NCBI GenBank assembly: GCA_937960625.1
Contig: CALGPD010000272.1
Span: forward strand, 1 to 42,869
Origin: an uncultured Spirochaetia bacterium
GTDB taxonomy: Bacteria > Spirochaetota > CALGPD01
Reading direction: 5' to 3'
Length of the DNA: 42,869 bases
Part shown: one piece after another, positions 9,984 to 42,646 of the stretch
Numbering within the stretch: the first letter of the stretch is position 1
Layout of the letters: each line of letters begins with the position of its first letter
The notes under the pieces: generated by a model
The model's input: the letters and a program-made list of their open reading frames with translations, nothing else
Databases searched by the model: none
What the model was told of the DNA's origin: nothing
Made by a program: the position numbers and the translations under genes

Positions 9984-10108
9984 GAGAGCGACAACGATGC
10001 AATCAATTTTGGTTTCTTATTTAACGAGACTGCTTCGTCACTCTCGTTCCTCGCAGTAACATAAAACTTTAAATTTTCCGACAATTTCTCTAAATCGAAA
10101 CTCACGTT
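9984..10108 (-). repeat. MITE-like element family, half copy A (left arm, inverted orientation)
   Basis: Its reverse complement AACGTGAGTTTCGATTTAGAG...GTTACTGCGAGGAACGAGAGTGACGAAGCAGTCTCG...GATTGCATCG aligns with the left arms of copies B-D. Boundaries are good to about +/-10 bp. Confidence 0.7.
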
Positions 10109-24765: not shown

Positions 24766-24983
24766 GGTTTGATTATAGGTTTTGATATGGGTTAAGGTGA
24801 GATAAACTCTTTGGGTTTAGTAATTACGGTTTCCCGCCAAGCAATTTCGTTCGGCTGCTTAATAACGATAATTCTTTGCCATAGATTCCTGGTAGAGGCA
24901 TTGACTTTTGGCTTTAGCGAAGCACGCCCACGGGCTTAATCATTGGCAACGAGAGAACGATGAATTTAGCAGAGGCATCTAAG

Positions 24984-25256
24984 AACGTGAATTTCGATTT
25001 AAAAAAATTACTACAATTTTTTAAAGTTTTATGTCACTGCGAGGAACGTAAGTGACGAAGCAGTCTCATTAAAAAAACCTTATGGGATTGCTTCGCTGCC
25101 GCTCGCAAAGACTAGACACTACGAGATAAATGCTAAAGCAAGCTTGCGTTTGCGTCAAAACCCATGTCACTTGCGAGGAACGAAAGTGACGAAGCAATTT
25201 TTTTGATTTAGTAATTCGAAAGAAATAAATTTATAATTTAAATCTAATTTCACGTT
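24984..25256 (+). mobile_element. MITE-like element, full copy B (273 bp)
   Basis: Termini AACGTGAATTTCGATTTAAA ... TTTAAATCTAATTTCACGTT. Two internal direct modules GTCACTGCGAGGAACGTAAGTGACGAAGCA / GTCACTTGCGAGGAACGAAAGTGACGAAGCA. No ORF. Confidence 0.8.
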
Positions 25257-27221: not shown

Positions 27222-27293
27222 TTTTAATTAATAACGCGGAATTAAATTTATAGATTTCAGTCAAATAGGGTTGGCATTTTTTTTATATTTATT

Positions 27294-27569
27294 AACGTGA
27301 ATTTCGATTTAAAAAAATTACCGCAATTTTTAAAGTTTTTCGTCACTGCGATGAACGTACGTGACGATGCTGTCTCGTTGCAAATAAACCTGATGGGATT
27401 GCTTGGCTAATGCTCGCAGGAGACTTTGCCCAAAGATATTGTTTCCTCACATGGTATAAGCCAACGTCAACTAGGAGGAGCGAATGCGACGAAACAATCT
27501 CTTTGATTTACTAAAAAATCATATATTTCGAAAAAAATAAATTTTATATTCTAAATCGAAATTCAAGTT
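27294..27569 (+). mobile_element. MITE-like element, full copy C (276 bp)
   Basis: AACGTGAATTTCGATTTAAAAAAATTACCGC ... CTAAATCGAAATTCAAGTT. The interior is nearly collinear with copy D. Confidence 0.8.
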
Positions 27570-28986: not shown

Positions 28987-29067
28987 GCACTGCCTTTTCT
29001 TCCTGATTAGAGTAACCGGTTAATTAGAAATTTTGTATTGGTTACAAATTGGTTTTCATTATTTAAA

Positions 29068-29383
29068 AACGTGAATTTCGATTTAAAAAAATTACCGCTA
29101 TTTTTCAAAGTTTTACGTCACTGCGAGGAACGTACTTGACGAAGCAGTCTCGTTGCAAAAGCTGCGCCTAATGAGATTGCTTAGCTTCGCTCGCATTGAC
29201 TATGCCCTGGAGATTGCTGCGCAAACATTCTCAGGAGACTTTGCCCAAAGGTATTTTTTCCTCACATGGCATAAGCCAACGTCACTTATGAGGAACGAAT
29301 ATAAAAAAGCAATCTCCTTGATATACTAAAAAATCATATATTTCGAAAAAAATAAATTTATAATTTAAATCGAATTTCACGTT
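29068..29383 (+). mobile_element. MITE-like element, full copy D (316 bp)
   Basis: AACGTGAATTTCGATTTAAAAAAATTACCGC ... AATTTAAATCGAATTTCACGTT. The terminal 20 nt are inverted repeats matching at 19/20. Confidence 0.8.
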
Positions 29384-32107: not shown

Positions 32108-32592
32108 ATAATATCCGTTTTCTTAATAAGCCAAAGCATGAACGCATATAAACACAGAATAGAGTAGGGCTAAAAGCGAGAATTAAAGCTTTAAGTAAAA
32201 TTATGATTTTTTTAAACGCGGAGATTGAAAAAATCATCCCTAGTCCTTCTTTAAAGGTACGAATTGGGACATAGTTTACATTTTAGACCGAGGACATGGT
32301 TTACACTTATTAGTAATAGTATGGGGTATTAAGAAAAACACCAACATTATAAAAAAACCATTTGCCTTCTTTATTAAAGGGGGCCGGGTAGAACCAACGG
32401 GATGTAAATTAAACTGGAGGATTTAAAACGGCTTAATCTTGCATATTAACAACGCGTTACACTTATGGTTTAAATACCTCCTAAACCACCGAGGTTCTCA
32501 TCTTCCCTCCGCGTTAATTTCTTCTTTTCCAATCCGTGGGTAGTTTTTTCTATCTTCTTAACGTATTGTAAAAAACAACGGGCTTTCTAAAT

Positions 32593-32736
32593 AACGTAAA
32601 TTGCAATTAAAAAATTACCGGTATTTTCTTAGGTTTTACTTAACTGCAAAGAACGGACGTGACTAAGCAATCTCGTTGCAGATAAACCAAATGGGATTGC
32701 TTCGCTATCGCTTGTGGGTGATATAAACCTGACCGG
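32593..32736 (+). repeat. MITE-like family, half copy E (left arm, degenerate terminus)
   Basis: AACGTAAATTGCAATT...GTGACTAAGCAATCTCGTTGCAGATAAACCAAATGGGATTGCTT...ATAAACCTGACCGG. A 44-nt core is identical to inverted copy F. Confidence 0.7.
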
Positions 32737-32773
32737 ATTAATAAAAAAAATATATAAACTGAGTTTCCAGTAA

Positions 32774-32807
32774 ATAAAAAAAAAGCCGCCTTAAAGAAGA
32801 CGGCTTT
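32774..32807 (-). terminator. Rho-independent terminator of ackA
   Basis: On the minus strand, AAAGCCG..CGGCTTT is followed by a run of 9 T, about 20 nt after the ackA stop. Confidence 0.7.
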
Positions 32808-34316: not shown

Positions 34317-37300
34317 ATGAAAAATAAATTAATAAAAATATTTACTTTTTGTATACTTACTTTTTTTTATATCTTTCCTGCCTATTGCAATAATTTTGTT
34401 ATTGTCTCAGAACAAACGTATAAAAAGGATATATTAAAAAAAATCGCTGTATTTGAGGATAAATCAGCAAAACTAGCTTTAAAAGAGATAATAAAACTTT
34501 CCAATCAGCATAAGTTTAAAGAAAATGAAAAGGGTAAATCAAATTTCGGAATAACATCGAGTGCAATCTGGTTAAAATTCAATATAACGAATAAAACTTC
34601 AAATTTCAAAAAATGGATTATAAACATCCGGAACAACAGAATAGCAACTGCGAGCCTGTTTTTAATTAACCGGGATAAAATTATTAAGCAATATCACACA
34701 GGATATTCGATTGATTATAAAGACAAACAGATTAAAGACAATGAAGCCACTTTTAAAATAAGCATTAATAAAAATGAGATATACACTGTTTTTATAAGAT
34801 TACATACACCATATACTTTATCTATTCCCATAACAGTTTATATGCCGGAAGAGTATGAGAAAAGAATAAACATTGATAGCGTCTTTCTTGGAATATTAAT
34901 CGGCATGCTTCTGGTTTTAATTTTATATTATGCTTTCGTGTATTTCAATTTAAAAGATAAATCGTATTTATATTTTATTTTACTCATTGTGTTCTGGCTG
35001 CTTTACCAATTTGATTTTTTTGGAATTTCTTCAAAATATTTTTTTCCGGCAAATAAATATTTAAAATCAAGGTTTCCATTAATTATTCTTGGAAATGTTA
35101 TAGTTTTTTTCTATTTATTTTCGATTCAGATAATGCGTATCAGAAAATATTTTAAACGAATTCTGCCATATTTATACGTTATTATTATTTTTTCTTTTTC
35201 TTACTCGTTGCTTGCTATAATACCCGGAACAAATATCCGTGTAATTTATAGATATGCATTGATTGTTAGTTTAATAGCAATTATTGTTTCATATTTAAGT
35301 ATTTTTGTTTATATCAAAACCAAGCAAAGAGTTGTTGTATATTATATAATAGCTTTTTCATTAGGTTTGGCAGGGCCTTTATTAAAAGCAATACTATCTA
35401 AAGGATTATTGCCTTTCAATTATATTGCATATTATGGTATGCCTATAACTAATACTCTGGCTTTTTTAATATTCGGATACGCATTAACTGATAAAATAAG
35501 GAATTCACTTTTAGAGAAACAAAGGTCAAATATATTAGTAAAAGAGAATGAAGAACTTGAAAAAGAAATTGATTTGAGAAAGCATGCGGAACATGATTTA
35601 CTAAAAAACAAGAAGGATCTTGAAAGATTGTTCGATGTTTCCCCTTTTCCTCTAGCAATATTAACCATTGAGGATATTATAGTTGTGAGGGCTAATAAAG
35701 CTTGTGAAGGTTTTTTTCAGGGCAAAGTGGAACAAACTTTAGGAAAAACCCCTGATATGTTTTTCAATCCCATTGAACAAAAATTCCGTTTACTTGATTT
35801 ACTAAAAGAAAGAGGCCTTGTTGAAAATTATGAAACAAGGTTTAAGACTTTTGAAAATGAAGAGCGTTTTGCTTTATTAAGTATTTATTCAACTGAATAT
35901 AACGACATTCCTTCATATATAGTAGGTATTGCAGATATAACAGCTCTAAAACAGGCGCAGTTGGAAATAAAGCAAAATGAAAAAATGTTCCGTGATATGT
36001 TTAATAAACACTCGGCAATTATGTTTATTACTGAGCAAAAAACATACAAAATCATAGAAGCAAATAATGCTGCAAGTAATTTTTATGGATATTCAAACAA
36101 AGAATTTAAGAAAATGATTGTGGATGACTTAAATATTTTACCATTTAATCAAGTTAAACATGAACTTAAATCAGGCTTTGCTAAGAATCAAAAGTATTTT
36201 GTTTTTAAGCATAAATTAAAAAACGGAGAAGTAAAAGATGTAGAACTTCACACTACTCCAATTTTACTGCAAAACCGAAAAGTATATTTTTCCATTATTC
36301 ACGATATAACGGAAAGGGTAATGTATCAAAAAGCGCTTAGGGAAAGCGAAGAGTTGCACAGGTTTATTGCTGAAAATACAAAAGACGTTTTATGGGTTAT
36401 GGATGAAAATCTTCAATTAACGTATATAAGTTCCAGTGTATTCGATGTTCATGGCTATACTCAGGATGAGATAAAAACAATGTCAATCAAGGAATTAATG
36501 ACGGGCAAGTCTTTTTTCAATGCAATGAGAGCTCTTGTAATGAAATTAAAAAAGCCGGATAATAATGATAAACCGCTTAAAATAGAAATCAGGTTTATTA
36601 AAAAGAACGGCGAATTCTTCTGGGCTGAAATTAATAGTAACACTCTTACAAATGAAAAAGGGGAGCTTGTCCGCGTTGTAGGCAGTACCAGAGATATTAC
36701 CGACCGTAAATTAATGGAAAAAGAAATCATTTTTACCAGAGATGAAGCGGAAAAAGCAAACAGGTTAAAAACAGAATTTATGGCTAACCTCAGCCATGAA
36801 ATAAGAACTCCGATGAATGCTATTTTAGGTTTTTCCCAAATTCTTGAAAAGAGAATAACCGATGAAAAACAAAAAGAATTTCTATCAATTATTTCAGCGA
36901 GCGGAAAAACTTTACTTAAACTCATTAATGATATATTGGATATTTCTAAAATTGAGGCAGGGAAGATTGATTTAAATTATTCTGTTGCGGATGTAAGGGA
37001 ATTAATAAATGAAATTAAAAATACCTTTGAATGGAAAATCAAGGAAAAAGGCCTGGATTTTATAATCCGTGTTTCTGAAAATGTACCTGATAATTTATTA
37101 ATAGATGAGTTAAAGATGCGGCAGGTATTATTTAATCTTGTGGGAAATTCTGTGAAATTTACTGAAAACGGATATATTAAAGTTTCAATGGATATTGAAA
37201 TACCGGAAACTGATGAAATAGAGATGAACTTAATTTTAAATGTGGAAGATACGGGAATCGGTATTCCATTTAACAGACAGGAGCAAATATTCCACGCTTT

Positions 37301-37904
37301 TATTCAGGCAGCTTCATCCCATTATTCGCAGAATGAAGGTGCCGGGCTTGGGCTGGCAATAACCAAACGCCTGGTTGAATTAATGAACGGGAAGATTAAC
37401 TTAAACAGTGAACCGGGAAGGGGAAGTTCTTTTAGTGTTGTAATACAAAATGTTAATACTTCTTTTATAGATTTTAATGATACTGAACAAGATGTAGAAT
37501 TACAGCAAAATATAGAAGAGTATAATTTTAAAGGCACTAAAGTATTAATTGCCGATGATTTAAAACATAATAGAGAGGTTGCAAAATACTTTTTAGAACT
37601 ATATGGAATTGAAGTTTATACAGCAGAACAGGGCAATGATGCTGTTAAGATGTGCATGAATATTTTACCGGATATTATATTTATAGACCTAATAATGCCG
37701 GAGTTAGACGGATTTAAGGCAATTGAAACTATAAAAAGCACCGGGCAATTTAATAATATTCCAATCTTAGCAGTTTCTCCGGCAGAAAATGGAGATAATA
37801 AACGCCGTGCCTTACAGGCAGGCGCAGACTTTGTATTGGTAAAACCCGTAACAAGAACGTATTTATTAAAAATTATTTCAGAGGCAATTAAAACTAGGCA
37901 GTGA
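34317..37904 (+). CDS. Hybrid sensor histidine kinase: 7TMR-DISM extracellular domain, 7 TM helices, PAS repeats, HisKA, HATPase, receiver
   Basis: Signal peptide plus an extracytoplasmic domain of about 170 aa, then 7 hydrophobic helices. PAS-like segments follow. H-box SHEIRTPMNAI, N-box FNLVGNSVKFT, G-boxes DTGIGIP and GAGLGLAI. C-terminal REC domain (VLIADD...FIDLIMPELDG...VKP). Confidence 0.92.
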   Translation: MKNKLIKIFTFCILTFFYIFPAYCNNFVIVSEQTYKKDILKKIAVFEDKSAKLALKEIIKLSNQHKFKENEKGKSNFGITSSAIWLKFNITNKTSNFKKWIINIRNNRIATASLFLINRDKIIKQYHTGYSIDYKDKQIKDNEATFKISINKNEIYTVFIRLHTPYTLSIPITVYMPEEYEKRINIDSVFLGILIGMLLVLILYYAFVYFNLKDKSYLYFILLIVFWLLYQFDFFGISSKYFFPANKYLKSRFPLIILGNVIVFFYLFSIQIMRIRKYFKRILPYLYVIIIFSFSYSLLAIIPGTNIRVIYRYALIVSLIAIIVSYLSIFVYIKTKQRVVVYYIIAFSLGLAGPLLKAILSKGLLPFNYIAYYGMPITNTLAFLIFGYALTDKIRNSLLEKQRSNILVKENEELEKEIDLRKHAEHDLLKNKKDLERLFDVSPFPLAILTIEDIIVVRANKACEGFFQGKVEQTLGKTPDMFFNPIEQKFRLLDLLKERGLVENYETRFKTFENEERFALLSIYSTEYNDIPSYIVGIADITALKQAQLEIKQNEKMFRDMFNKHSAIMFITEQKTYKIIEANNAASNFYGYSNKEFKKMIVDDLNILPFNQVKHELKSGFAKNQKYFVFKHKLKNGEVKDVELHTTPILLQNRKVYFSIIHDITERVMYQKALRESEELHRFIAENTKDVLWVMDENLQLTYISSSVFDVHGYTQDEIKTMSIKELMTGKSFFNAMRALVMKLKKPDNNDKPLKIEIRFIKKNGEFFWAEINSNTLTNEKGELVRVVGSTRDITDRKLMEKEIIFTRDEAEKANRLKTEFMANLSHEIRTPMNAILGFSQILEKRITDEKQKEFLSIISASGKTLLKLINDILDISKIEAGKIDLNYSVADVRELINEIKNTFEWKIKEKGLDFIIRVSENVPDNLLIDELKMRQVLFNLVGNSVKFTENGYIKVSMDIEIPETDEIEMNLILNVEDTGIGIPFNRQEQIFHAFIQAASSHYSQNEGAGLGLAITKRLVELMNGKINLNSEPGRGSSFSVVIQNVNTSFIDFNDTEQDVELQQNIEEYNFKGTKVLIADDLKHNREVAKYFLELYGIEVYTAEQGNDAVKMCMNILPDIIFIDLIMPELDGFKAIETIKSTGQFNNIPILAVSPAENGDNKRRALQAGADFVLVKPVTRTYLLKIISEAIKTRQ

Positions 37905-37961: not shown

Positions 37962-38004
37962 AATTATTAACATGAGTTTTGATTTATTAAAATTTTTTAT
38001 TGAA

Positions 38005-38150
38005 CCGGTCAGGTTTATGTCACCCTTGATTGAAAGCAAAGCAATCCCATTTGGTTTATCTGCAACGAGATTGCTTAGTCACTTACGTTTCCTCCAACAA
38101 CATAATTTTTAGAAAAGTGTTGGAATTTTTTAAAAATCGAGTTTCACGTT
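38005..38150 (-). repeat. MITE-like family, half copy F (left arm, inverted orientation)
   Basis: Its reverse complement AACGTGAAACTCGATTTTTAAAAAATT...GTGACTAAGCAATCTCGTTGCAGATAAACCAAATGGGATTGCTT...ATAAACCTGACCGG matches copy E. It lies 20 nt downstream of the stop at 38170. Confidence 0.75.
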
Positions 38151-38169
38151 ATTAGATTATTTTTCAATA

Positions 38170-38805
38170 CTATTTTATACCTTCAAGGCTTTTTATAAAT
38201 CTACTAGAGCCGTCTTTAAGAACGTCTTTTACAACGCCGTCAAATGTGCCACTCATCATACCGAGATTCATGGCAGCAATTTCCACTTTACCATCTGTCT
38301 TTTCATAAACAGAAATTCCCATCGGCATCATAACAGACATTGGTTTATTTTCATCGTTTTTTATAATTGAATACCCGCCCTCAGGATTACAGAAATATAG
38401 AACTTTTAGCTTTGTCATGTCTTTAAGCCCGTGTTCGTGATATTCTTTTTGCAAATCTCTGGTGTCAGGTATCTCCCACTTATTGTTAATTGCGTTTTGC
38501 TCTAATTTTTTTACGGTTTCATCGAATGGGAGCTTGCTTGTATAAGTGCTGAACATCATTTTCTGCATTAAATTAGCGCTCTGTATTGCTTTTAAGATTT
38601 TCTTTAAAGTTTCTTTTTCTCCCACAGCCTGCTTAATAAATTCTATTAAACCTTCAGCGGTAATCTCTTTAAGCATTGCCGCCATCATTTCAGGAAAAAA
38701 TTCATGTAAATCAATACCCTCCATCATAAGAGGCATCATCTTCATCATCATTTTCTCCCGTTTCTTTTTACCTAACATTTTAACGAATAATTTCATCACA
38801 CCCAT
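38170..38805 (-). CDS. DUF302-domain protein with a Met-rich N-terminal extension of about 85 aa
   Basis: The C-terminal FDETVKKLE...YFCNPEGG...MPMGISVYEKTDGKVEIAAMN fits the DUF302 pattern. The N-terminus carries KMMMKMMPLMMEG...PEMMAAM...MQKMM. The ATG abuts the upstream stop, with AAGGAGG 8 nt upstream. Confidence 0.8.
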   Translation of the reverse strand: MGVMKLFVKMLGKKKREKMMMKMMPLMMEGIDLHEFFPEMMAAMLKEITAEGLIEFIKQAVGEKETLKKILKAIQSANLMQKMMFSTYTSKLPFDETVKKLEQNAINNKWEIPDTRDLQKEYHEHGLKDMTKLKVLYFCNPEGGYSIIKNDENKPMSVMMPMGISVYEKTDGKVEIAAMNLGMMSGTFDGVVKDVLKDGSSRFIKSLEGIK

Positions 38806-39366
38806 TTAGTTTTCCTCCTTATGAAGTGAGTTTTTTAAAATACTTGCCAGTTTTTTTATAAAACGATTTCTTTGTTCTTTTTCAATAAACGGTATCAAAT
38901 TTTGAGCACAGTGAGGGAAAACAGATTGCATCATGGTTAGAATATTATCCTTCATATCAGGATTTTTTTCAAACATGGGAATCATGGTTTTTGTCATTAC
39001 TTTTGGCATGTTCTCTGCCATCATCGGCATCATAGGTCCCATTTTTTTCATCATGGCAGGCATAAGCACTGACATAACCATTTCCATCATGGGCTGCATT
39101 TGTTCCATTTTTTCAGGCATTTTTTGCATCATGTTTTCGTGCATGTTCTCTAATTTGCTTTTTAATTCTTCATCTTTCAATAAGGTTGATAAAAAGTTGA
39201 AAACGTTGTATAAACTAATTTCACTACCCATTTTTTTTAGCATATTAGGTATCATTTTTAAAAGATCCACATCTTTCATCATGGTAGGCATCATCTTAAG
39301 CATTAATTGTTTCCGCTCTTCAGCAGGCAATGCCTTAACCATACCTTTCATCATCATACTCATCAT
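38806..39366 (-). CDS. Methionine-rich cytoplasmic protein (186 aa, about 21% Met), function unknown
   Basis: The start is moved to the ATG at 39366 (MMSMMMKG), which has AAGGAG 7 nt upstream. The ORF-track start at 39480 would overlap the upstream gene by 110 nt. My hand count is 39 Met in 186 residues. Motifs include KMMPTMMK, QPMMEMVMSVLMPAMMKKMGPMMPMM and FPHC. Confidence 0.75.
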   Translation of the reverse strand: MMSMMMKGMVKALPAEERKQLMLKMMPTMMKDVDLLKMIPNMLKKMGSEISLYNVFNFLSTLLKDEELKSKLENMHENMMQKMPEKMEQMQPMMEMVMSVLMPAMMKKMGPMMPMMAENMPKVMTKTMIPMFEKNPDMKDNILTMMQSVFPHCAQNLIPFIEKEQRNRFIKKLASILKNSLHKEEN

Positions 39367-39370
39367 AATT

Positions 39371-39754
39371 TTACTCCTTATCAGTAGAGATTCCGTCAAT
39401 GTATACTTTATTTTTTTGCGCGAGTTTACCGAGTACAAAAATAGCGCTTTGTTTAGATATTTTAAACTCGTTAGAAACATCTTCAGGAGTTATACTTTCC
39501 TTGTCCTTGGCTAGTTTAATAATTTCATCCTCAAGTTGAATTAACCAATCCTCAAATAGAGTTCTAAGTTCGGGAGTAGCATACTCGGCTATCTCATTTG
39601 TCTGTATTACTCTATCAGTATTATTGACTTTTGTTCTTCCGCAATTTTTTTGAATATGCTGTTTCATATTTTTCATCATATCTTTATCATTTTCTTTCAT
39701 ATGCTTTTTCATACGATCCATGCATTTTTCCATCATTTTAAAATTTTTTTTCAT
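39371..39754 (-). CDS. Small protein with a Met/Cys/His-rich N-terminus and a possible winged-helix C-terminal domain
   Basis: AGGAGG lies 7 nt upstream of the ATG. The N-terminus is MKKNFKMMEKCMDRMKKHMKENDKDMMKNMKQH. The C-terminal ITPEDVSNEFKISKQSAIFVLGKLAQKNKV looks like a wHTH, but this is a weak call. Confidence 0.65.
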   Translation of the reverse strand: MKKNFKMMEKCMDRMKKHMKENDKDMMKNMKQHIQKNCGRTKVNNTDRVIQTNEIAEYATPELRTLFEDWLIQLEDEIIKLAKDKESITPEDVSNEFKISKQSAIFVLGKLAQKNKVYIDGISTDKE

Positions 39755-39798
39755 TATATATCCTCCTATTACATTTATATAACTTTATTGTTGTAAAT

Positions 39799-40143
39799 TT
39801 ATTTTTTGTTCATTTTTCGCCACCAAGGCGGACATCTGAACATCGGTTCGTCACTTAACTGCTCTTCAATATTCTGTGCCATATCTGATAAAATGCCAAG
39901 TACATCGAGTAATTGCGGGTCAGTTACCCGGTAATATATAAAAGGCCCTTTTCTCGTTACTGATAACAAACTATTATCTTTCATTGCTTTTAGATGATGC
40001 GAAACTAGTGGCTGAGAAAGATTAACTTCAGCAACAATTTCCGATACAGCCAGTTCTTTATCTCCAATTAAATGGAGAATTTTAAGCCTGTTTGCGTCAC
40101 CCAAAATCTGCAGCAGTTTTTGTAATTTTTTCACATCCTTCAT
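39799..40143 (-). CDS. ArsR/SmtB-family transcriptional regulator
   Basis: LGDANRLKILHLI...AVSEIVAEVNLSQPLVSHHLKAMKDNSLL is an HTH_20/HTH_5 signature. The canonical CXC metal site is absent (ELAVSEI). There is a single Cys in the C-terminal tail. Confidence 0.88.
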   Translation of the reverse strand: MKDVKKLQKLLQILGDANRLKILHLIGDKELAVSEIVAEVNLSQPLVSHHLKAMKDNSLLSVTRKGPFIYYRVTDPQLLDVLGILSDMAQNIEEQLSDEPMFRCPPWWRKMNKK

Positions 40144-40154
40144 ATTAACACCTA

Positions 40155-40180
40155 TTTATATAAATGTCCGCTTATATAAG
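40155..40180. promoter_or_regulatory. Two 10-bp palindromes (TTTATATAAA, CTTATATAAG): candidate ArsR operator
   Basis: Boxes at 40155-40164 and 40171-40180 are 16 bp apart centre-to-centre. They lie between the -10 element and the arsR start codon. Confidence 0.4.
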
Positions 40181-40191
40181 CCTCTGTTTAT

Positions 40192-40220
40192 ATTCTATGT
40201 CATAAATTGAATTTTGTCAA
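40192..40220 (-). promoter_or_regulatory. Candidate promoter TTGACA-17-TAGAAT of the arsR operon
   Basis: On the minus strand, TTGACA (40220-40215), a 17-nt spacer and TAGAAT (40197-40192). Confidence 0.5.
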
Positions 40221-41662: not shown

Positions 41663-42646
41663 ATGTCAGAATTATTCAACCTAATTTTTAAAACCCTCGC
41701 GGGTAACATTTTCCTAGTTGTCGTGAGCTTTGCGTTACTTTATTATGGAGCTGATCTTCTGGTCCGGGGAAGTGTAACCATAGCGACGAATTTTGGGGTA
41801 CAAAAGTTAATCGTGGGCATGACTATTGTGGCATTCGGAACATCCATGCCTGAATTTACAGTAAGCCTTTTTGCTAAAATTAGAAATTCAACGGGTATTT
41901 CCGTAGGTAACGTTATCGGGTCAAACATTGCGAATATTGCATTAATTTTGGGAACAGCGGCGTTAATACGGCCCCTAGATGTTCATCTTGAAGTTATTAA
42001 GGTAGAGCTTCCTTTATTATTTGCTTTCACTGTTATTTTTAACATGCTGTGTTTAGACGGTATTGTATCGGTTATTGACGGCGTGATATTGCTTTCAATA
42101 TTCTCCGGATATATGTATTTCCGAATTGTCCGCGGCAAGAAGGGCAAAGAAGTTGAAGTTGAAGAAGTAGACGAAATAAAAGCAGGTACACCGAAAATAA
42201 TATTATTAATTATAATCGGTATCGTGTTACTCGTTGCGGGTTCCGATTTGTTAATCCGGGGCGCGGTTTTTATCGCTGTAAAATTTAATGTTAATAAAAT
42301 AGTTATCGGTTTAACCATGGTCGCGCTTGGAACGTCTCTGCCTGAGTTATTCACCAGTGTAATAGCGGCAATGAAAGGAGAATCCGATATTTCCATAGGC
42401 AACGTAATAGGATCAAACTTTTTTAACATCTTTATGATTTTAGGTTTTATCGCGCTTTTTGGTAATATTCAACTAACCAATGATGTTAGATATTTGCAAA
42501 ACTGGATTAACTTAGGTTTAACTTTAATATTGTTCCCGATAATGTTCACGGGGAAAAAAATCAACAGGGCAGAAGGTTTGTTTTTCCTTACTTTCTACGT
42601 TGTTTATATTTTAAACCTATATTTTAAATGGTTTTTCGTTAGTTAG
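41663..42646 (+). CDS. CaCA-family cation/Ca2+ exchanger (YrbG-like)
   Basis: Two alpha-repeats (GTSMPEF...GNVIGSNIANI and GTSLPEL...GNVIGSNFFNI) in a protein with about 10 TM helices. Confidence 0.88.
   Translation: MSELFNLIFKTLAGNIFLVVVSFALLYYGADLLVRGSVTIATNFGVQKLIVGMTIVAFGTSMPEFTVSLFAKIRNSTGISVGNVIGSNIANIALILGTAALIRPLDVHLEVIKVELPLLFAFTVIFNMLCLDGIVSVIDGVILLSIFSGYMYFRIVRGKKGKEVEVEEVDEIKAGTPKIILLIIIGIVLLVAGSDLLIRGAVFIAVKFNVNKIVIGLTMVALGTSLPELFTSVIAAMKGESDISIGNVIGSNFFNIFMILGFIALFGNIQLTNDVRYLQNWINLGLTLILFPIMFTGKKINRAEGLFFLTFYVVYILNLYFKWFFVS

Follow-up and report, generated by a model that had tools for sequence, protein, structure and literature searches.

A methionine-rich protein and a methionine-substituted DUF302 protein form a conserved gene pair, found behind an ArsR-type regulator in an uncultured Spirochaetia bacterium

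Why would a bacterium keep proteins in which about one residue in five is methionine (Met) behind a regulator of the ArsR family? The question is raised by a four-gene locus at positions 38,170-40,220 of contig CALGPD010000272.1, from an uncultured Spirochaetia bacterium, which was analysed here over its full length of 42,869 nucleotides (nt) and is called the window; it derives from the ENA metagenome assembly ERZ925706. The first two genes encode an ArsR-family protein and a small companion, and the last two encode a Met-rich protein and a fusion of a Met-rich N-terminal domain to a DUF302 domain, together called the cargo pair. The conserved core of the system is this Met-rich plus Met-DUF302 pair, which occurs in seven bacterial phyla or more. 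This conserved module has a wide phylogenetic spread and is wholly uncharacterised, and its function is a matter of inference; it may serve to sequester a soft, thiophilic ligand in the cytoplasm by means of Met thioethers.

The elements of the locus are as follows (aa, amino acids).

40192-40220, minus strand: predicted sigma-70-type promoter, TTGACA (40220-40215), a 17-nt spacer and TAGAAT (40197-40192), matching the consensus at 11/12 positions
40156-40179, minus strand: candidate operator TTATATAA-N8-TTATATAA, between the -10 hexamer and the Shine-Dalgarno sequence of the ArsR gene
39799-40143, minus strand: ArsR/SmtB-family repressor, TsoR-like, 114 aa, with a match to HTH_5
39371-39754, minus strand: TsoA-like small protein, 127 aa, with a partial match to the TsoA profile
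38806-39366, minus strand: Met-rich protein, 186 aa, of an uncurated all-helical family
38170-38805, minus strand: Met-DUF302 fusion, 211 aa, with a match to DUF302 (PF03625)

The genes are separated by gaps of 44 nt and then 4 nt, the TAA of the Met-rich gene abuts the ATG of the DUF302 gene, and a Shine-Dalgarno sequence of the AGGAG/AGGTG type is found 5-9 nt before each of the four starts. The promoter is the top match of the region. The promoter scan itself was not enriched relative to shuffled sequence (15 matches found, 12.4 expected), and the promoter is supported instead because it lies upstream of the first gene and because TTGACA boxes occur at the equivalent place in related loci (L011, L014, L001 and L017 of those fetched for comparison). 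Coordinates, gaps, Shine-Dalgarno sequences and promoter all agree with a first-pass annotation of the window, in which four tightly packed minus-strand genes had been proposed to be co-transcribed. The four-gene operon is real, and its co-transcription is plausible from the gene packing and the single promoter.

Is the Met content itself real? The counts were reproduced exactly, with 39 Met among the 186 residues of the Met-rich protein (21.0%), 24 in the 211-aa DUF302 protein, 16 of them within its first 85 residues, and 9 in the 127-aa protein, against a background of 2.36% in 23 long open reading frames (ORFs) of the window. The window has a G+C content of 33% and carries long ORFs on the opposite strand too, as would be expected if the genes were spurious ORFs in AT-rich DNA with an accidental composition. 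Such an artefact is, in our judgement, vanishingly improbable, and we reject it on the conservation data. The Met-rich protein has homologues in 129 clusters and the DUF302 fusion in 367 or more, and synteny is kept across phyla. Met richness is likewise kept in orthologues: 46 Met-rich homologues, on contigs with 32-57% GC, contain 17.7-25.9% Met and 62 DUF302 fusions 8-14%, and over the whole span of 32-63% GC there was no meaningful correlation between Met content and GC. In addition, a confident structure prediction was obtained for the Met-rich protein and the DUF302 fold was recognised in its partner.

The conservation extends to individual positions. A column occupied by Met in the window protein is again Met in 64% of cases among other members of the Met-rich family and in 93% among the DUF302 fusions, whereas Leu, Ile, Val and Phe columns are unchanged in just 17-32% and 46-64%, respectively. 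In the 186-aa protein, Met-Met spacings of i+3, i+4, i+7 and i+8 were observed 15, 21, 14 and 14 times, with about 7.8 expected, and spacings of i+2, i+5 and i+6 were depleted. From these spacing peaks it follows that the Met residues form a stripe along one face of a helix. The position-specific conservation therefore points to thioethers that act in structure or ligand binding, not to a compositional accident, and by the same measure Met itself is judged to be under selection.

A different use of Met would be as a sacrificial sink for oxidants, in which the side chains would be oxidised by H2O2, HOCl or chloramines and then restored by methionine sulfoxide reductases whose genes lie elsewhere. 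The extreme Met content would suit such a role, as would the absence of a metal site from the window ArsR, and there is precedent for antioxidant Met residues (PMC5526929). Bulk scavenging, on the other hand, requires abundance and not position, and a purely sacrificial role is disfavoured because it needs no fixed Met positions, such as the 93% conserved columns of the DUF302 fusions and the one-face helical pattern. Moreover, the canonical cysteine (Cys)-containing DUF302 motif is swapped for Met, the hosts are mostly strict anaerobes, the alternative regulators of the cargo are ArsRs of the CxC metal type, and no msrA, msrB or msrPQ gene was seen in any neighbourhood examined. We thus regard the oxidant sink as quite unlikely, and the conservation pattern favours a specific ligand over it.

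A word-index search with the 186-aa protein gave only 2 relatives, probably owing to its low complexity, and a hidden Markov model (HMM) scan of 1.84 billion representatives together with synteny was needed before the family could be seen. It then numbered 129 clusters at E<=1e-3, of which about 40 cover the full length. When 31 members were scanned against Pfam and NCBIfam, no family was obtained, only scattered sub-threshold noise, and Foldseek found no match in the PDB for the fold of the modelled protein. As far as these searches reach, the Met-rich protein belongs to no described family. Its AlphaFold2 model, made with 31 sequences, consists entirely of helices, with a mean predicted local distance difference test score (pLDDT) of 87 and one helix spanning residues 66-134. 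Besides Met, the protein contains three histidines (His) and a single Cys, the latter in a PHC motif (FPHC); the C-terminal Cys/His site of the family is FPHC, or CP in some members. The homologues are annotated at source as 'hypothetical protein'.

The partner is better anchored. The DUF302 domain (PF03625) was matched at residues 117-180 with an E-value of 1.5e-11 (44.4 bits, cut-off 23), and the C-terminal 125 residues were assigned to the TT1751-like fold, with matches to 1q9u, 7tj1 and 1j3m (TMt 0.77-0.84, Foldseek probability 1.00); 1q9u was matched by sequence as well (E 7.2e-06). The domain keeps the Cys of the CNP motif. The FLPC(K) of 1q9u aligns with MMPMG, and a second Cys motif is thus lacking here, namely LPC, which we take to be conserved family-wide. 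In the DUF302 fusions 46 columns are invariant, 16 of them Met, MMP is invariant throughout the subfamily, and a second Met cluster (AMNLGMMSGMF) is conserved in the DUF302 domain. Judged by sequence and fold comparison, the protein is a true PF03625 member and appears to represent a derived, Met-substituted subfamily. At 90% identity this fusion family comprises at least 367 clusters, and its top matches share 53-74% identity with the window protein. Among its members are sequences annotated as coming from Aminicenantes and from a Sifarchaeia (Asgard) archaeon, under the label 'DUF302 domain-containing protein'; like the 'hypothetical protein' label of the Met-rich homologues, this assigns no biochemical function. 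To our knowledge, the function of DUF302 is still not known more than 20 years after its structures were solved.

The two cargo proteins are related to each other. The N-terminal ~70 residues of the 211-aa protein are homologous to those of the 186-aa protein (hhalign probability 98.4%, E 4.7e-15), and HMM cross-hits agree. In a Kyte-Doolittle scan with a 19-residue window the maximum was 0.85-1.04, which by that crude test indicates neither a transmembrane helix nor the hydrophobic region of a signal peptide.

How constant is the association of the two genes? Sixteen loci were obtained from a pattern scan of one genome per species, all of them metagenome-assembled genomes (MAGs), and 36 more from a metagenome scan; 70 loci were fetched overall and mapped with purpose-built HMMs for five recurrent families. 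The 16 loci are hosted by Desulfobacterales, Aminicenantes, Cytophagales, Cyclobacteriaceae, Anaerolineales, SAR202, Neomarinimicrobiota and Melioribacteraceae. Wherever the flanking DNA sufficed, on about 38 distinct contigs in all, the Met-rich gene stands directly beside a Met-DUF302 gene (in L032 in reversed order). The window conforms to the same definition, its Met-rich gene adjoining a gene for a DUF302 protein with the paralogous domain at its N-terminus. From a MAG of the Sifarchaeia archaeon the DUF302 partner alone is known, on a 3.1-kb contig outside the fetched loci.

ArsR follows another pattern. The TsoR-like ArsR gene and the TsoA-like gene come before the cargo in the window, L011-13, L014-16 and L021. 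In six lineages (L001, L017, L024, L035, L039 and L057) the cargo is headed by another ArsR with a canonical CxC in helix alpha-3 (EMCTC, EMCIC or ELCVC), and those that were aligned (L001, L017 and L024) have N-terminal Cys residues too, as in CadC/ArsR-type sites. In at least 12 lineages, for example L004, L005, L009, L022, L023 and L025, there is no adjacent ArsR. ArsR is thus optional, occurs in two types, and does not define the system. The first-pass annotation had asked whether the Met-rich genes always co-occur with both ArsR and DUF302; for DUF302 this holds in every informative locus, for ArsR it does not.

The regulator genes of the window have relatives of their own. The ArsR matched HTH_5 (PF01022) with an E-value of 5.6e-13 (49 bits, cut-off 22), so that for this protein, as for the match of the 211-aa protein to PF03625, the family proposed in the first pass was recovered above cut-off. 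It also passed the generic metalloregulator model NF033788 (79.3 bits, cut-off 55). Its best specific model was TsoR (NF045707), at 94.7 bits, below the equivalog cut-off of 115, and orthologues in L011 and L014 scored 92.6 and 96.2 bits against the same profile, in nearly full-length matches. At the position of the canonical alpha-3 CxC (ELCVCDL) the alignment reads ELAVSEI, in agreement with the earlier remark that the CxC metal site is missing. What the TsoR-like ArsRs have instead is a conserved C-terminal tail, M-F-x-C-P-P/S-W-W (CPPWW), which carries their sole Cys.

The 127-aa protein had at first been counted as one of three Met-cluster proteins, and this did not hold. Its 9 Met, 2 Cys and 2 His all lie inside the first 38 residues, in a Lys/Met-rich N-terminal tail, and what orthologues conserve there according to the alignment is a Cys motif, MM-x-x-C-M...MK..GC, and not the number of Met. 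No Pfam family was found for it. Its residues 46-114 align to positions 75-143 of the TsoA profile NF045695, which has 144 positions, with 53.1 bits (cut-off 170). The C-terminal ~70 residues of the TsoA-like proteins gave sub-threshold winged-helix matches, to DnaD_N in 6/7 members and also to Lrs14, MarR, FeoC and TrmB, in line with the winged helix first suspected, and one orthologue carries the JGI label 'predicted HTH transcriptional regulator'. Because the Cys motif of the TsoA-like protein is matched by a Cys tail on the ArsR, the first two genes look like a two-protein sensor/regulator unit, and the 127-aa protein looks like the partner of the regulator rather than the first Met cargo protein.

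Tso stands for 'three selenoprotein operon', a system named by Haft and Tolstoy in 2025 (as cited in PMC13188914). There, too, an ArsR/SmtB repressor gene is directly followed by a gene for a small protein, TsoA, whose C-terminal ~70 residues are shared with the window protein. The N-terminus of the window protein reads KMMEKCMDRMKKH, with MMxxCM in place of LULAxC. Selenocysteine is absent, as all four genes stop at TAA or TAG with no in-frame TGA, and the genes downstream of the regulator pair gave no match to the TsoB or TsoC profiles. The window cargo is accordingly Met-rich plus DUF302 and neither TsoB (rhodanese/DsbD-like) nor TsoC, and the CPPWW tail is an addition relative to TsoR. Going by the profile scores, the regulator pair is related to TsoR/TsoA and is not assigned to either family, both equivalog cut-offs having been failed. 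The view of the first pass that the whole system is uncharacterised thus stands for the cargo pair, and for the regulator pair it is superseded by this relationship. A hidden selenocysteine TGA was also considered as the origin of short TsoA-like proteins (78-80 aa) and was rejected; in L034 a frameshift, not a TGA, splits the TsoA-like gene between the MMKNCM N-terminus and the C-terminal domain.

If this pair regulates its own operon, a binding site should accompany it. The pattern TTATATAA-N8-TTATATAA has one exact match in the 42.9-kb window, with 0.09 expected, and 0/100 shuffles reached the observed count. Among the 70 fetched loci the motif is present only in L011-16, L033 and L034, each time 14-35 nt upstream of the start of a TsoR-like ArsR gene and in otherwise unrelated surrounding sequence; it has been kept in four independent lineages and is found nowhere else in the fetched DNA. 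We consider it a strong candidate operator that supports autoregulation, with the ArsR as the presumed binder. A further copy of the half-site pair with one mismatch, at 40173-40194, overlaps the -10 hexamer, and the third half-site copy suggests an array of three half-sites at 16-bp spacing. In L034 (3580-4556) the TsoR-like ArsR gene, the motif and the TsoA-like gene stand ahead of a SHOCT membrane protein gene alone, without the Met-rich/DUF302 cargo. Taken together, these relatives of TsoR/TsoA make up a portable regulatory cassette with a defined candidate operator, also used with non-selenoprotein cargo.

The SHOCT protein is the only gene product besides the cargo that recurs nearby. 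In about 16 lineages a small protein that spans the membrane once and carries a SHOCT domain at its C-terminus (motif KKRYAKGEITKEEFEQMK) is encoded immediately upstream or downstream of the pair, at the following positions and others:

L014, 7781-8059: SHOCT ORF
L022, 6081-6344: SHOCT ORF
L023, 7647-7889: SHOCT ORF
L024, 7728-7982: SHOCT ORF
L025, 7722-7964: SHOCT ORF
L032, 8022-8309: SHOCT ORF

A search of the whole window gave no SHOCT ORF. In Haloferax alexandrinus, a membrane protein with SHOCT has been reported to be induced by silver (PMC10694973).

A variant in Anaerolineales carries DUF302, a Cys-rich transmembrane segment and then a Met-rich segment with PPC at its end, all fused in one polypeptide:

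L027, 1964-2740: fusion gene
L028, 2620-3297: fusion gene
L029, 2521-3390: fusion gene
L030, 1805-2461: fusion gene
L063, 475-1158: fusion gene

As a rosetta-stone fusion this indicates that the DUF302 and Met-rich modules are functionally linked. A gene for an Rce1-like protease lies upstream of the fusion in L027 and L028, and a MIP (aquaglyceroporin-type) channel gene lies directly downstream in L027.

Other neighbours were seen in single lineages. In an Aminicenantes MAG (WVZL01000019.1; L009, 3734-5122) an AhpD/CMD-like protein with five Cys, an 88-aa protein and a homologue of the organomercurial lyase MerB are encoded on the same strand directly upstream of the pair. A PadR-TauE pair stands beside the cargo in L004. 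Large proteins with adenylate/guanylate-cyclase domains are encoded beside the pair on metagenome contigs that may represent one lineage (L059, 702-2384; L047, 2972-4672; L068, 770-2056). The 20 nearest neighbours are heterogeneous (the MIP channel, the Rce1-like protease, adenylate cyclases, a methyltransferase, CsgG/LpoB-like lipoproteins, a flavodoxin and others), and only SHOCT recurs. No recurrent transporter, oxidase, methionine sulfoxide reductase, rhodanese or copper ATPase was found in the neighbourhoods examined, which extends to other genomes the earlier observation that the operon contains no transporter, oxidase or methionine sulfoxide reductase gene. An Rfam scan of the window and of six loci without ArsR gave no upstream riboswitch or RNA element, the only hit being one tRNA located elsewhere.

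What, then, could the ligand be? The reading that we prefer, with a probability of about 40%, is that of an inducible cytoplasmic system for thioether-based sequestration or buffering of a soft, thiophilic ligand, analogous to SmtB/SmtA. The operon would be autoregulated and built of two portable modules, the regulator pair and the cargo pair. ArsR would sit on TTATATAA-N8-TTATATAA just downstream of the -10 hexamer and block transcription, to be released when a thiophilic inducer engages the Cys/Met tails of ArsR and of the TsoA-like protein, possibly bridging both. The Met-rich and Met-DUF302 proteins would associate via their common N-terminal domain and act as an inducible cytoplasmic binder or buffer with Met instead of Cys as ligand, in which the FPHC (or CP) site and the Met-converted DUF302 pocket might provide sites of higher affinity or for hand-off. 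In many lineages the SHOCT-domain single-pass membrane protein would join the pair. Thiophilic metals are indicated by the CxC/CadC-like ArsRs of six lineages together with the merB neighbour in Aminicenantes, and the lack of a recurrent transporter or enzyme nearby is as expected for a sequestration module. Chemically, Cu(I) or Ag(I) would be the most plausible ligand, with Hg, organomercury or another soft metal possible; Met thioethers serve as Cu(I)/Ag(I) ligands in CusF, PcoC/CopC, CopA and CusA, as summarised in PMC10092412. The identity of the ligand, the association of the two cargo proteins and repression by ArsR are all points that we infer.

Several observations weigh against this reading. 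The window ArsR lacks a characterised metal site (the alpha-3 CxC was checked, the alpha-5 ligand set viewed only coarsely), and BigR, a sulfite/persulfide sensor, is among its closest named relatives after TsoR, at 37-55 bits. Neither cargo protein was found to be homologous to a known metal-binding family in searches of Pfam, NCBIfam and the PDB, and no copper ATPase, CopZ or CusF was seen in any neighbourhood examined. The structural models are of limited help, as the N-terminal Met domain (~85 aa) of the DUF302 protein was modelled at low confidence (pLDDT ~43) and the predicted template modelling score (pTM) of the Met-rich model is just 0.53. In the literature, DUF302 is placed in sulfur-oxidation/persulfide modules as often as in metal islands. 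Finally, little free Cu or Ag is available in the sulfidic, anoxic sediments that most host lineages inhabit.

Some of the same observations suggest a role in the handling of reactive sulfur or selenium, in which the Cys of the regulators would sense persulfide, polysulfide or selenium species and the Met helices and DUF302 pocket would bind or carry a hydrophobic chalcogen such as S8, polysulfide or Se(0). The ArsR is, after all, closest to TsoR, the regulator of a selenoprotein operon with the rhodanese/DsbD-like TsoB, and BigR is among the next-best specific models, being second only to TsoR in the L011 and L014 orthologues. DUF302 genes occur inside sox clusters and in a persulfide-dioxygenase/rhodanese/TauE module under a CsoR-type regulator, the PadR-TauE pair of L004 adjoins the cargo, and the hosts are largely sulfur-cycle anaerobes. 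Known sulfur carriers, by contrast, work through Cys persulfides, and a single Cys is all that each cargo protein offers; persulfide sensors of the ArsR family have two Cys per monomer, and the window ArsR has one. Neither rhodanese nor persulfide dioxygenase, SQR, TusA or DsrE was found in the neighbourhoods examined, and six lineages use the metal-type CxC ArsR instead. A sulfur or selenium function is in our estimate unlikely, albeit of some weight.

The helical Met stripe may also be read in structural terms, as a pliable hydrophobic groove of 'methionine bristles' for a hydrophobic peptide, a lipid, a cofactor or an organometal such as methylmercury, with DUF302 as effector or oligomerisation domain. 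A fold made only of helices, one of them very long, as predicted here, is what oligomeric or client-binding scaffolds typically show; in Aminicenantes merB is a neighbour, and both the frequent small SHOCT membrane protein and the membrane-anchored fusion variant would fit. The SRP54 M domain, calmodulin and chloroplast Hsp21 likewise display Met on one face of amphipathic helices, with no homology to the window proteins; their settings are targeting or chaperone machinery, whereas the context here is of a regulatory or stress type. No recurrent chaperone, secretion or lipid-metabolism genes were seen nearby, ArsR-family control would be unusual for a chaperone, and the conserved Cys/His sites (PHC, CP) and Cys-bearing regulators suggest coordination chemistry over purely hydrophobic binding. 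We hold a bristle-type groove to be rather improbable.

Returning to thioether-based sequestration, a stronger version of it can be formulated, which we put forward as speculative and on balance doubtful. The Met-rich and Met-DUF302 proteins would represent an unrecognised class of cytoplasmic 'thioether metallothionein', a hetero-oligomer formed via the shared N-terminal domain whose Met stripes store or buffer Cu(I)/Ag(I), a different soft metal or an organometal, and this would be the first biochemical role for DUF302; the TsoR-like and TsoA-like proteins would together make a new Cys-based sensor that selenoprotein operons also use. If this were true, such a thioether store would have the merit of being redox-inert and of working in sulfidic, anoxic settings, where thiolates are compromised.

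How does the system compare with those already described? SmtB/SmtA consists of the cyanobacterial ArsR-family repressor and a metallothionein. Like SmtB/SmtA, MymT and Csp3, the window system comprises regulated small cytosolic proteins rich in sulfur ligands without a transporter, and the likeness is one of functional analogy. Unlike SmtA and Csp3, to which there is no sequence or fold relationship, the window cargo has Met thioethers and one Cys per protein, and it consists of two proteins plus DUF302, with metal binding as a proposed property. Met clusters at helical or short spacings with an occasional His or Cys are found also in CusF, PcoC/CopC, PcoE/SilE, the Met-rich inserts of CopA and CueO, and the Mets motifs of Ctr1. 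Compared with the periplasmic Met-rich Cu(I)/Ag(I) proteins, those of the window are predicted from sequence to be cytoplasmic, far denser in Met, and without an efflux pump or oxidase partner, and no homology to CusF, PcoE/SilE or CopC/PcoC was found among the 31 family members scanned. With the TT1751-like proteins of PF03625 (1q9u, 1j3m, 7tj1) the window protein shares the fold and the CNP Cys; relative to canonical DUF302 it adds an N-terminus of ~85 aa rich in Met, MMPMG for (F)LPC, and the extra conserved Met. Literature searches combining DUF302 with methionine-rich found nothing. By analogy with these systems we rate the module as a putative repressor-controlled ligand-sink operon assembled from new protein families. 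The first-pass observation is confirmed, and its interpretation is partly supported; the roles it raised for the Met clusters, as Cu(I)/Ag(I) ligands or as oxidant sinks, stand as hypotheses.

The surroundings of the operon in the window are not shared by the other loci. A dispersed intergenic repeat of ~100-170 nt with an internal hairpin (GTCACT...AGTGAC core) occurs in both orientations, its copies being 62-91% identical. The repeat copies and flanking genes are as follows, the positions of the first five copies being approximate.

10013-10073 (approximate): repeat copy
24977-25076: repeat copy
27286-27423: repeat copy
29061-29160: repeat copy
32584-32777: repeat copy
37964-38157: repeat copy, directly 3' of the DUF302 stop
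34317-37904, plus strand: 7TMR-DISM/PAS hybrid histidine kinase, 1195 aa
40430-41434, plus strand: alpha/beta-hydrolase with a lipoprotein-like N-terminus
41663-42646, plus strand: Na/Ca-exchanger family protein

No canonical terminator was found just 3' of the DUF302 stop, and the repeat copy at that place could serve as the terminator of the operon. A neighbour resembling a miniature inverted-repeat transposable element had been recorded in the first pass; an adjacent repeat copy is indeed present, but as one copy of the dispersed repeat, with no conserved association with the operon elsewhere. None of the three flanking plus-strand genes is kept beside the operon in any other locus.

Should the cargo bind soft metals, cytoplasmic sequestration by methionine in place of cysteine would be seen here for the first time, and the SmtB/SmtA scheme would be extended to life in anoxic sediments and in the deep ocean, Asgard archaea among it. 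Small size and solubility of the proteins make the hypotheses cheap to check in vitro. For the widespread DUF302 family, the system offers a foothold, in the form of a specialised subfamily with Met-converted pocket residues and an obligate partner.

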